A stretch of 64,000 nt of DNA, from the sequence record OQ417966.1; one strand, 5' to 3'. The stretch is from Mycobacterium phage prophiT36-1. This document shows, piece by piece, positions 18,087 through 19,156 of this stretch. The notes under the pieces are model-generated. The model did no database searches, was not told the origin of the DNA, and worked only from the letters and a program-made list of their open reading frames with translations. Position numbers and translations under genes: made by a program. Positions within the stretch are counted from its first letter, which is position 1, and each line of letters starts with the position of its first letter.

Positions 18087-18677
18087 ATGAGCGACACGAA
18101 AGCGGGGCAGCAGGTCGGCTACGTGCGGGTGTCGACGCTGGACCAGAACACCGAACGTCAGCTCGACGGCATCGAGGTTGATAAGCGGTTCGAGGACAAG
18201 GCCAGCGGCAAGGACACTGCCCGGCCGGCGCTCACCGAGGCGCTCGGCTACGTGCGCGACGGCGACACTTTGGTGGTCCATTCGATGGATCGGCTGGCGC
18301 GCTCGCTGGAGGATCTGCGGCGTACCGTGCGGGAGTTGACCGTTCGGGGTGTGCGGGTCCACTTCGTCAAGGAGAACCTGACGTTCACGGGCGACGATTC
18401 GCCGATGTCCACGCTGCTGCTGTCGATGCTGGGGGCGGTGGCGGAGTTCGAGCGGTCGATGATCCGGGAGCGTCAGCGCGAGGGCATCGAGCTCGCGAAG
18501 GCGAAGGGTGTGTACAAGGGCCGCAGGCCAGCGCTGACGGGTGAGCAGACAGCCGAAGTGTTGGAGCGGCTTGCGGCTGGTGAGCATCCGGTGGATTTAG
18601 CGCGCGAGTTCGGGGTGTCACGTGCCACCGTCTACAACGTGCGGGCGCGGGCCGCGGGCGACGAAGTAGCGGGGTGA
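18087..18677 (+). CDS. Small serine recombinase (resolvase/invertase family) with C-terminal HTH
   Basis: GYVRVSTLDQN (catalytic Ser region), DTLVVHSMDRLARSLEDL, GRRPAL..., C-terminal HTH VDLAREFGVSRATVYNV. Confidence 0.85.
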   Translation: MSDTKAGQQVGYVRVSTLDQNTERQLDGIEVDKRFEDKASGKDTARPALTEALGYVRDGDTLVVHSMDRLARSLEDLRRTVRELTVRGVRVHFVKENLTFTGDDSPMSTLLLSMLGAVAEFERSMIRERQREGIELAKAKGVYKGRRPALTGEQTAEVLERLAAGEHPVDLAREFGVSRATVYNVRARAAGDEVAG

Positions 18678-18778
18678 TTTGGTCTGTCTTTTGCTCGTCG
18701 TTGGGGCATAAGACGGGCCGACACGCCAGGAGGTTCCGTATGTCGGGAAAAATTTATTATTGGGGTTAGCCTGAGAGA

Positions 18779-18852
18779 TAATCCACACGTAGCTCACAGG
18801 TTATCCACATGTGGTAATGGGTGTTTACCAGCTTGTTTTGGACTTATCCACA
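18779..18852 (+). repeat. Three direct 9-mers matching the DnaA-box consensus TTATCCACA (TAATCCACA 18779-87; TTATCCACA 18801-09; TTATCCACA 18844-52); the middle one sits in the imperfect palindrome TTATCCACATGTGGTAA
   Basis: Read directly in the non-coding, AT-richer region downstream of the serine recombinase. Confidence 0.6.
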
Positions 18853-19156
18853 ATTCTAAGAATCTGCGCTTTTCCACGGCGATTAGCCGGGTATCTGCCC
18901 CTGATCTGGGCTTTCAGCGTGCCCGCTAGTGTCGCTCGGGCAAATTACCTGTTTAGGATTTGACTCGAGCTGGAAGGATCCCAAGCCCGTGTGCCTGGGA
19001 TGGCGACCGGGCCTGGGACCAATCACACTGCTTTGGGCGGCAGGGTGTTGACGGTACCAGTGTGGTGTCGAACCGCCAAAGCGGGACGGCCCTGCTTTGT
19101 CGCACCTTCCGGCTTGGTTCAGGCATGTGACCTGGGCAAAGTCAGGAGAAAATAGA

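Follow-up and report, generated by a model that had tools for sequence, protein, structure and literature searches.

Mycobacterium phage prophiT36-1 (OQ417966.1) is the source of the 64,000-nucleotide stretch of DNA analysed here (the window), which is 100% identical in sequence to Mycobacterium phage prophiT48-1 (OQ417964.1) and belongs to cluster MabL. The latter is a MabL-cluster prophage of M. abscessus T48 that integrates via a tyrosine integrase (PMC9934374). An earlier note, made from the letters of this DNA, pointed out that the prophage encodes a small serine recombinase in addition to a tyrosine integrase, which is indeed present at 103-1221, and that repeats and an imperfect palindrome lie immediately downstream of the recombinase gene; neither the recombinase nor the repeats are discussed in the published descriptions of these prophages. 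The note considered a DnaA-dependent origin or iteron set, a resolution site used by the recombinase, or the boundary of an invertible segment. The features that we found around the recombinase gene (gp38) are listed in Table 1. We consider it likely that they represent two unrelated modules lying side by side, a Tn21/Tn3-type resolution system made up of the recombinase and a resolution site (res) upstream of it, and a lipoprotein cassette with DnaA boxes, to which the repeats belong.

Table 1. Features of the two proposed modules and their positions in the window
Feature	Positions	Strand	Description and basis
res site I-like crossover	17317-17344	+	GTCTAACTGGGG TATA CCCGTGCCAAAC; 12+4+12 bp dyad; pattern match
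res site II-like dyad	17389-17420	+	GTCTAACAA-N14-TTGTTAGAC; 9-nucleotide arms, 100% complementary
res site III-like dyad	17435-17455	+	GTCTAGAAC cta GTTAGAAAC; aligns with plasmid site III
gp36	17465-17704	+	small open reading frame between res and gp38; PHROG 34838, function unassigned there
gp37	17701-18066	+	small open reading frame between res and gp38; PHROG 28577, function unassigned there
gp38	18063 (annotated) or 18087 to 18677	+	small serine recombinase, Tn21/Tn3-family TnpR type; Pfam, identity
Three 9-mers	18779-18809	+	TAATCCACA cg TAGCTCACA gg TTATCCACA; exact 11-bp phasing, 2 bp apart
Box 2	18801	+	TTATCCACA; perfect DnaA-box consensus
Box 3	18844-18852	+	TTATCCACA; 43 bp from box 2 in the window
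Box 4	18870-18878	+	TTTTCCACG, weaker; 26 bp past box 3; nnnTCCACAG in relatives
Leader	18960-19156 (~190 nucleotides)	+	5' of gp39; conserved, apparently structured; folding energy, covariation
gp39	19157-19753	+	secreted lipoprotein, lipobox LSAC; travels together with array and leader
Terminator-like hairpin	19763-19813	+	closes the cassette; 12-nucleotide arms, 92% complementary

The open reading frame of gp38 is intact and, in agreement with the earlier note, its product combines the catalytic domain (Pfam Resolvase PF00239, 2.6e-37) and the C-terminal helix-turn-helix (HTH_7 PF02796, 1.1e-08, residues 145-184) of a small serine recombinase. Its best matches in the PDB are Gin (2e-27), Sin and the Tn3 and gamma-delta resolvases, and it matches PHROG 125, which is named 'DNA invertase'. 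Sequence identity places gp38 with the TnpR-like proteins of the Tn3 family: it is 65% identical at the amino acid level to the Tn21-family TnpR of pAKD16 and 68-69% identical to the aligned Nocardia plasmid recombinases, and by tblastn its identity is 61-66%, over more than 90% of its length, to annotated Tn21/Tn3-family resolvases, 67-73% to the stand-alone recombinases that Nocardia and Tsukamurella plasmids carry, and only ~40-45% to phage proteins annotated as invertases. The alignment with TnpR and the plasmid homologs shows no variation at residues S16, R14, D68, R69 and R72. A remnant of the gene is found in phage Mao1, where gp94 (L006:2993-3235) corresponds only to the C-terminal helix-turn-helix third of the recombinase (residues 117-193, 75% identity) and stands as a separate 'HTH DNA-binding' gene.

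In Tn21 and Tn501, res lies upstream of tnpR with site III proximal to the gene, crossover occurs in site I and the internal promoters are repressed by TnpR (PMC7157771). The 130-200 bp 5' of the recombinase gene have one layout in pAKD16 and in two Nocardia, a Rathayibacter and a Curtobacterium plasmid, in which site I is a dyad with the core TG[G/A]GGTA[C/T]ACCC, site II starts with CGTC[A/C]GAATAGAGTC and ends with TTGACAC, and site III reads G[G/T]TCTTAGA...TGACA. The phage intergenic region 5' of gp36 contains three elements whose order and strand are those of the plasmid res sites, and the two can be aligned subsite by subsite; at the sequence level, the region thus has three subsites, of which site III is closest to the gp36-gp37-recombinase operon, and a central AT (17330-17331) in site I. 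Using the pattern GTCNNNYTGRGGYANASCC, which was built solely from five plasmid and Tn21-family site I sequences, we obtained one match in the window, at 17317-17335 and with 0 mismatches (0.07 expected with one mismatch allowed), and likewise a single match, in the corresponding position, in each phage locus that has the recombinase and extends far enough upstream. Site I overlaps the gp35 stop codon and is an imperfect palindrome that does not vary among the MabL phages and is almost unchanged in Sejanus. In the alignment, the site II-like dyad falls opposite site II of the res sequences from the Tn21 family and Nocardia (CGTCnGAATAGAGTC...TTGACAC); it contains a -35-like TTGACT (17404-17409), while a -10-like TAATGT (17428-17433) stands directly 5' of site III; the resulting promoter-like pair, TTGACT-N18-TAATGT, occupies the place that corresponds to the res promoters of the Tn21 subgroup. 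The counterparts of site III in the plasmids are GGTCTTAGACTCCAACTGGACA and similar sequences. The half-site of site III is an inverted copy of that of site II, and all three dyads share one half-site.

What supports the res assignment is the combination of the unique pattern match, the anatomy of three dyads, the conserved position and the relationship of the proteins, and on this sequence-based reading gp38 is very probably a dimer or multimer resolvase with its res at 17317-17455. Several observations weigh against it. With an nhmmer profile built from the plasmid res sites, site I is detected only weakly (E 0.04 and 0.16), and an equally weak, chance-looking match appears at 23604; the spacing between sites I and II is 21-22 bp longer in the phage than in the plasmids; res is, unusually, separated from the recombinase gene by two open reading frames; and at sites II and III the half-sites of the phage and of the plasmids have drifted apart. 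The competing nhmmer match (23604-23650, E 0.023) falls within the sequence that encodes the signal peptide of the gp46 lipoprotein, has no left half-site and was judged to be due to chance. The half-site GTCTAAC was also considered as a genome-wide operator and rejected, its count in the window being at chance level and the cluster at 17316-17455 alone standing out. The exact half-site word TGTCTAAC recurs at 1294-1301, in the intergenic region between the integrase gene and gp2; its window-wide count is likewise at chance level.

Compared with the res/TnpR systems of Tn21 and Tn501, of which pAKD16 is the example used here, the phage module has a recombinase with the same catalytic residues, a res that is 5' of the gene on the same strand and runs I-II-III, a site I dyad of 12+4+12 bp with a GGnAnACCC core around the central AT, and a -35-like TTGAC in site II. 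It differs in that gp36 and gp37 separate res from the recombinase gene, in that the additional 21-22 bp between sites I and II amount to two helical turns, in its half-site (GTCTAAC versus GTCAGAA or GTCCGAA) and in its replicon, a temperate siphophage that also has a tyrosine integrase. Neither a DDE transposase (TnpA) nor terminal inverted repeats, which are about 38 bp long in the Tn3 family, were found near the module, whose neighbours are phage early genes and cargo, and since there is no transposase we regard it as a resolution module rather than a Tn3-family transposon. A second known system is that of the stand-alone resolvase/res modules of actinobacterial plasmids (Nocardia, Tsukamurella, Rathayibacter and Curtobacterium), whose recombinases are 63-73% identical to gp38; the four plasmids compared in detail (two Nocardia, Rathayibacter and Curtobacterium) have the same res layout directly 5' of the gene and no transposase, although in the plasmids res abuts the recombinase gene, unlike in the phage. 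The role of these modules, presumed from annotation, is to keep a circular replicon monomeric. The Hin/Gin/Cin invertases of phages belong to the same superfamily as gp38, as the Gin and PHROG 125 matches indicate, but gp38 has far more in common with TnpR than with the phage proteins annotated as invertases, a res of three subsites is a feature of resolvases, and no pair of inverted crossover sites, as required for phage DNA inversion, was found in the 64-kb window.

The genes gp36 and gp37 are co-conserved with res and the recombinase (88% nucleotide identity in relatives) and have no Pfam or PDB matches; the idea that they form a toxin-antitoxin pair, as seen beside res in some Tn3-family elements, found no support from protein families or the PDB and was dropped. 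Together, res I-II-III with its embedded promoter, gp36, gp37 and the resolvase gp38 would make up the first module (17317-18677), which has been kept by MabL prophages and by the phages Sejanus and Mask. By analogy with the Tn3 family, resolvase dimers bound at sites II and III of two direct copies of res on one supercoiled molecule would form a synapse in which strand exchange would be set off at the AT in the centre of site I, so that dimers and multimers of the circular phage genome would become monomers; binding at res would also repress the promoter of gp36-38. Because there is one res per genome, recombination would be possible only between the copies on a multimer and a monomer would be unaffected. 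We infer such resolvase activity for gp38, and a multimer-resolution function is plausible since a RepA-type initiator together with RecE/RecT (gp15 and gp16 by annotation) should yield circular multimers. The 'resolvase/invertase-like' gene of MabL phages would then be a Tn21-type resolvase with an identifiable res, which corrects the annotation logic for the whole cluster, whose host is a clinically important pathogen, and the multimer-resolution function is testable; gp38 and res might possibly also serve as a compact recombination tool for mycobacteria.

The initiator itself bears on how the region was first understood. The earlier note had recognised no replication initiator among the early genes and had taken a ParB-domain protein encoded at 24444 to suit a plasmid-like mode of replication. 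Both premises of that argument were mistaken: gp31 (14859-15992), annotated as a RepA-like initiator, matches PHROG 3171 'replication initiation protein' (E 4.7e-103), and the product encoded at 24444 is a fusion of ParB_N with an N6_N4 DNA methylase, which adjoins the terminase and is not a partition protein. The dimer-resolution idea itself holds as far as the recombinase is concerned, which appears to be a resolvase with a res, but this site lies upstream (17317-17455) and not in the downstream gap, where the note had placed it.

The region between gp38 and gp39 (18678-19156) is non-coding and has a GC content of 54.1%, compared with 63.4% for the window, and of 45% at 18741-18900, in line with the ~480-bp AT-richer gap described before. 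The three direct 9-mers described there are also as reported, namely TAATCCACA (18779), TTATCCACA (18801) and TTATCCACA (18844), at a spacing of 22 and 43 bp. The motif TWATCCACA occurs four times in the window (0.23 expected), a number reached in 0 of 100 shuffles; the fourth copy (24347, minus strand) is located inside the small open reading frame gp47 and has not been kept in prophiT46-2, where the sequence is GATAACCCACA. Homologous regions were found in six lineages, across which the non-coding sequence is only 55-65% identical, yet several elements do not vary. TAGCTCACA is the same in all six, the leftmost 9-mer being poorly conserved; box 2 (TT[G/A]TCCACA) is TTGTCCACA in four lineages and TTATCCACA in two, and box 3 (TT[A/T]TCCACA) is TTATCCACA in five and TTTTCCACA in one, with variation in both cases at position 3 alone; and TCCAC[A/G]G is kept in box 4. 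The distance between boxes 2 and 3 is 42-43 bp (four helical turns) in all lineages, and 349-358 bp separate box 2 from the start codon of gp39 or its homolog. The sequence TTGTCCACA is the high-affinity DnaA box of M. tuberculosis and S. coelicolor, and TTATCCACA that of E. coli and B. subtilis (PMC4285127, Table 1). Because TTGTCCACA and TTATCCACA equal these published high-affinity boxes, DnaA is the best candidate ligand, and the 9-mers, which form a conserved cluster of the type TT[A/T/G]TNCACA with two perfect and two to three weaker boxes, look like real DnaA boxes.

Downstream of the array, a leader that ends in the Shine-Dalgarno sequence AGGAG (19143-19147) precedes gp39. Its minimum free energy is -91.6 kcal/mol, compared with -75.3 kcal/mol for shuffled sequences (z = -3.65), and RNAalifold predicts 38 pairs, 8 of them with compensatory changes, 92.5% of the cells being paired compared with 35-49% in slid controls. 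These results are suggestive of a conserved structure, and the leader is possibly a new cis-regulatory RNA restricted to the gp39 cassette. A conserved open reading frame in the leader was ruled out by frame-breaking indels of 1-2 nucleotides, and in Rfam 15 no family reached its gathering threshold, the sole match being ALIL (17 bits against a gathering threshold of 50, E 0.064). Besides the lipobox cysteine, the gp39 protein has two invariant cysteines, C68 and C179. It has no match in Pfam, NCBIfam or PHROG; its AlphaFold2 model is a generic beta-sandwich (mean pLDDT, the per-residue confidence score, 64) for which Foldseek returned no significant PDB match.

The cassette so delimited spans about 18715-19820, and homology to sibling phages resumes at 19831-19881. 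The possibility that it is a transposable unit was discarded, there being no terminal inverted or direct repeats. Like prophage morons, it is present in some and absent from other syntenic phages, is lower in GC and has its own regulatory region and a terminator-like hairpin; unlike in typical morons, the region upstream of the gene is unusually long (~440 bp) and unusually conserved. Three -10 candidates of the TANNNT or xAxxxT type are conserved in the gap, beside or among the boxes (TAGCCT at 18767-72, AAGAAT at 18857-62 and TAGGAT at 18954-59). A further element, TTCT[A/T]AGA[A/T]T, is kept in all cassette lineages; its place is between boxes 3 and 4 in T48, and in most other lineages it follows box 4. 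A 12-mer, AGTTCTTAGATT, is common to the gp39-homolog locus L025 (L025:4725-4745) and to the -10/site III region of a Nocardia farcinica plasmid res (L055); this sharing between the upstream region of the cassette and a plasmid res is probably convergence on a promoter -10 element.

We then compared how the array, gp39 and the recombinase are distributed. Repeats, leader and gp39 co-occur in six lineages, two of which have no recombinase nearby. Homologs of gp39 with 91, 82, 73 and 59% identity are encoded 475-550 bp 3' of the recombinase in MabL-like prophages, with the array in the gap, while homologs with 52-53% identity occur in loci that have neither a recombinase nor phage genes nearby and carry the same upstream region, with the same boxes and with box spacing and distance to the start codon in the ranges given above. 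In one of these loci (L025) the gp39 homolog is surrounded by TetR, short-chain dehydrogenase, FMO-like, aldo-keto reductase and YkuD genes; in the others, from soil metagenomes (L026-L029), it stands among genes for MspA, a 19-kDa lipoprotein and a Tox-REase-5 toxin. With the exception of one locus (L030), all gp39 homologs of 91-50% identity carry the upstream array. Conversely, prophi88-1, prophiT46-2, prophiT49-1 and Sejanus have an orthologous recombinase (85-96% identity) and no array; TWATCCACA was found in 0/5 when Mao1 was included with these four (ortholog or remnant), and siblings in which the recombinase is 94-96% and RepA 98-99.5% identical have no repeats. The similarity of these five phages to the window ends at 18652-18655, ~25 bp before the stop codon of the recombinase gene, and resumes beyond gp39. 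Many M. abscessus assemblies contain the exact recombinase together with the exact gp39, with 0-2 mismatches in the gap and with variable cargo after gp39. Of the two outcomes that the earlier note had named as refuting its reading, a lack of conservation of the 9-mers in relatives did not occur, the 9-mers being conserved, but with gp39; the other, a partner site of the recombinase elsewhere, did. The second module is independent of the recombinase, and the proposed link between repeats and recombinase is not supported.

The gap (18650-19160) matched only itself in the phage collection and nothing in plasmids; scans of species-representative genomes with the box pattern and by alignment of the gp39 protein gave no relatives; a scan of metagenomes recovered the L026-type locus again and otherwise only unrelated repeat sequences of low GC content on other contigs; and a scan of IMG/VR with the leader pattern re-found only M. 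abscessus prophages. Two regions of IMG/VR contigs (L031:13100-13379 and L040:7070-7248) contain at least 10 TTATCCACA boxes in ~270 bp; these are unrelated low-GC viral contigs with a genuine dense DnaA-box cluster, which turned up solely because they fit the search pattern. The locus without an array (L030:3564-5459) is a MabL-like prophage in which the recombinase gene is followed by a gene for a 221-amino-acid protein, a 24-bp gap and the gp39 homolog (51% identity).

We propose that the second module is a moron-like cassette, inserted in a variable slot after the recombinase gene and consisting of the box array, the long leader, gp39 and the terminator-like hairpin. The array would be a protein-binding regulatory site with host DnaA as the most likely ligand: as we infer it, DnaA bound to the two consensus boxes would extend onto the weaker, 11-bp-phased ones, so that gp39 transcription would be tied, with whichever sign, to the DnaA status of the cell, and some DnaA would incidentally be sequestered. 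Several points count against this reading. The invariant TAGCTCACAGG beside box 2 is a poor DnaA box, and 11-bp-phased direct repeats would fit an OmpR-family response regulator as well; a scan with the sigma-70 consensus calls no promoter in the gap or in the homologous upstream regions; the L030 homolog lacks the box array, which not all members of the lipoprotein family thus require; and the covariation in the leader rests on just six lineages, from whose sequences the structure was itself predicted.

Clusters of DnaA boxes outside oriC, such as the DnaA-box clusters (DBCs) of B. subtilis and, in E. coli, datA and the promoters regulated by DnaA, are likewise short groups of consensus boxes beside a gene and away from the origin, and they regulate neighbouring genes and titrate DnaA (PMC3245932, PMC13438810). 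The array described here differs from DBCs and datA in being part of a horizontally mobile lipoprotein cassette in mycobacterial prophages, in being coupled to a long leader, and in having two perfect and two to three weak boxes for which DnaA binding is predicted. If DnaA binds, it would be among the few candidate non-oriC targets of DnaA in mycobacteria. The more specific idea that the array and the ~190-nucleotide leader form a composite control region of a kind not described before, which couples a mobile envelope lipoprotein to the initiation state of the host, or that a datA-like sink shifts the timing of initiation, seems to us rather doubtful; were it true, the array would be a rare transcription-factor or titration target of DnaA in mycobacteria that is spread by prophages. 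A purely DnaA-titrating, datA-like role of the array is also conceivable. Both modules are individually ordinary and neither is surprising in kind; the res assignment and the box-bearing cassette are useful new annotations, and the control region of the cassette is the sole part with some potential for novelty.

Of the other explanations for the array, binding by an OmpR-family response regulator of the host (MtrA, PhoP or another) instead of DnaA fares best, unlikely as we consider it. Such regulators recognise direct repeats with an 11-bp period and typically control envelope genes, and here three 9-mers at exact 11-bp phasing precede the gene for an envelope lipoprotein. PhoP binds 7-bp TCACAGC direct repeats with a 4-bp spacer (PMC4832192), and the motif of MtrA is a 9-nucleotide direct repeat with 2-nucleotide spacing, GTCACAgcg (PMC6265350, PMC4285127). 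The invariant TAGCTCACAGG contains TCACAGG, which matches the M. tuberculosis PhoP repeat TCACAGC at 6/7 positions, but the second repeat matches at only 4/7, and GTCCACA has an extra C relative to the MtrA core GTCACA. Furthermore, boxes 2 and 3 match the DnaA consensus at 9/9 positions in every lineage, the core motifs of response regulators do not cover the invariant T's at positions 1, 2 and 4 of the boxes, and boxes 3 and 4 have no partner 11 bp away.

It is improbable that the 9-mers act as RNA, within a leader of ~375 nucleotides transcribed from the -10-like TAGCCT at 18767. A TANNNT hexamer is found ~7 nucleotides 5' of box 1, the leftmost 9-mer, in 6/6 lineages, the leader further downstream has the conserved structure described above, and box 4 of L025 lies in a hairpin, although this hairpin is specific to the L025 lineage. 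Recognition as DNA is favoured by the invariance of the boxes without compensatory change, by their arrangement as 11-bp direct repeats and by their agreement with a known DNA-binding consensus.

The DnaA-dependent origin or iteron set suggested in the earlier note, or a DnaA-titrating set serving phage replication, is more improbable still. RepA-type initiators often cooperate with DnaA, and the array offers perfect DnaA boxes in direct orientation that face the same side of the helix; nowhere else in the region is the GC content as low, and a 14-nucleotide AT run lies at 18750-18763. However, the AT run is not conserved as such, and the array is not inherited together with the initiator, being absent from phages whose RepA is 98-99.5% identical and present in loci away from phage genes, where it keeps its 349-358 bp distance from a gp39 homolog. 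In prophiT46-2 and prophiT49-1, in particular, RepA is 98.1% and 99.5% identical to gp31, and there is no TTNTCCACA in the 11 kb around it. The array is also 2.8 kb from repA, which has 12-bp repeats of its own. Perfect DnaA boxes in a phage thus need not mark an origin, and here they appear to belong to the control region of a mobile lipoprotein cassette.

Least credible of all is that the repeats or the palindrome are a res, accessory sites or an invertible-segment boundary of the recombinase whose gene they directly adjoin. The imperfect palindrome pointed out before, TTATCCACATGTGGTAA, is present at 18801-18817 but is not conserved, CCACATGTGG reading CCACAAGCTT, CCACAAGCGG or CCACAAGTGT in relatives. 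A search for the second, inverted copy that the earlier note had envisaged gave the 11-mer GATAATCCACA at 24347-24357 on the minus strand, at the far end of the variable cargo region; it is part of the gp47 coding sequence, is changed in prophiT46-2 and was put down to chance. Since the array occurs without the recombinase, the palindrome is not conserved and there is no conserved inverted partner, the boxes are not a res or inversion site; the recombinase also occurs without the array, a three-subsite res typical of its family lies upstream of its gene, GTCTAAC and TCCACA bear no relation to each other as half-sites, and the single site I-like sequence in 64 kb leaves no inverted pair.

Further observations were made on neighbouring genes. 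The interior of gp31 contains about 12 copies of a 12-bp unit, GGACCCACCCAG (15395-15551), which could be in-gene iterons or an origin, or could merely encode a Gly/Pro/Thr-rich linker; for an origin, these repeats are a better place to look than the box array. The surrounding sequence (15001-17000) is strongly skewed, with a GC skew of -0.2 and an AT skew of +0.3. Beyond the cassette, a perfect 14-bp inverted repeat at 20113-20154, between the convergent genes gp40 and gp41, is likely to be a bidirectional terminator, and a 15-bp inverted repeat (AAAAGTGTATTACAC / GTGCAATACACTTTT, 21354-21395) 5' of a BrnT-like toxin-antitoxin pair is likely to be an operator. The 457-amino-acid product of gp44 (21649-23022) has a C-terminus that varies and a long repeat region rich in Gln and Pro; relatives share the N-terminal part at 84-86% nucleotide identity and differ in the 3' part, a pattern that, with the small immunity-like genes that follow, would fit a polymorphic toxin.

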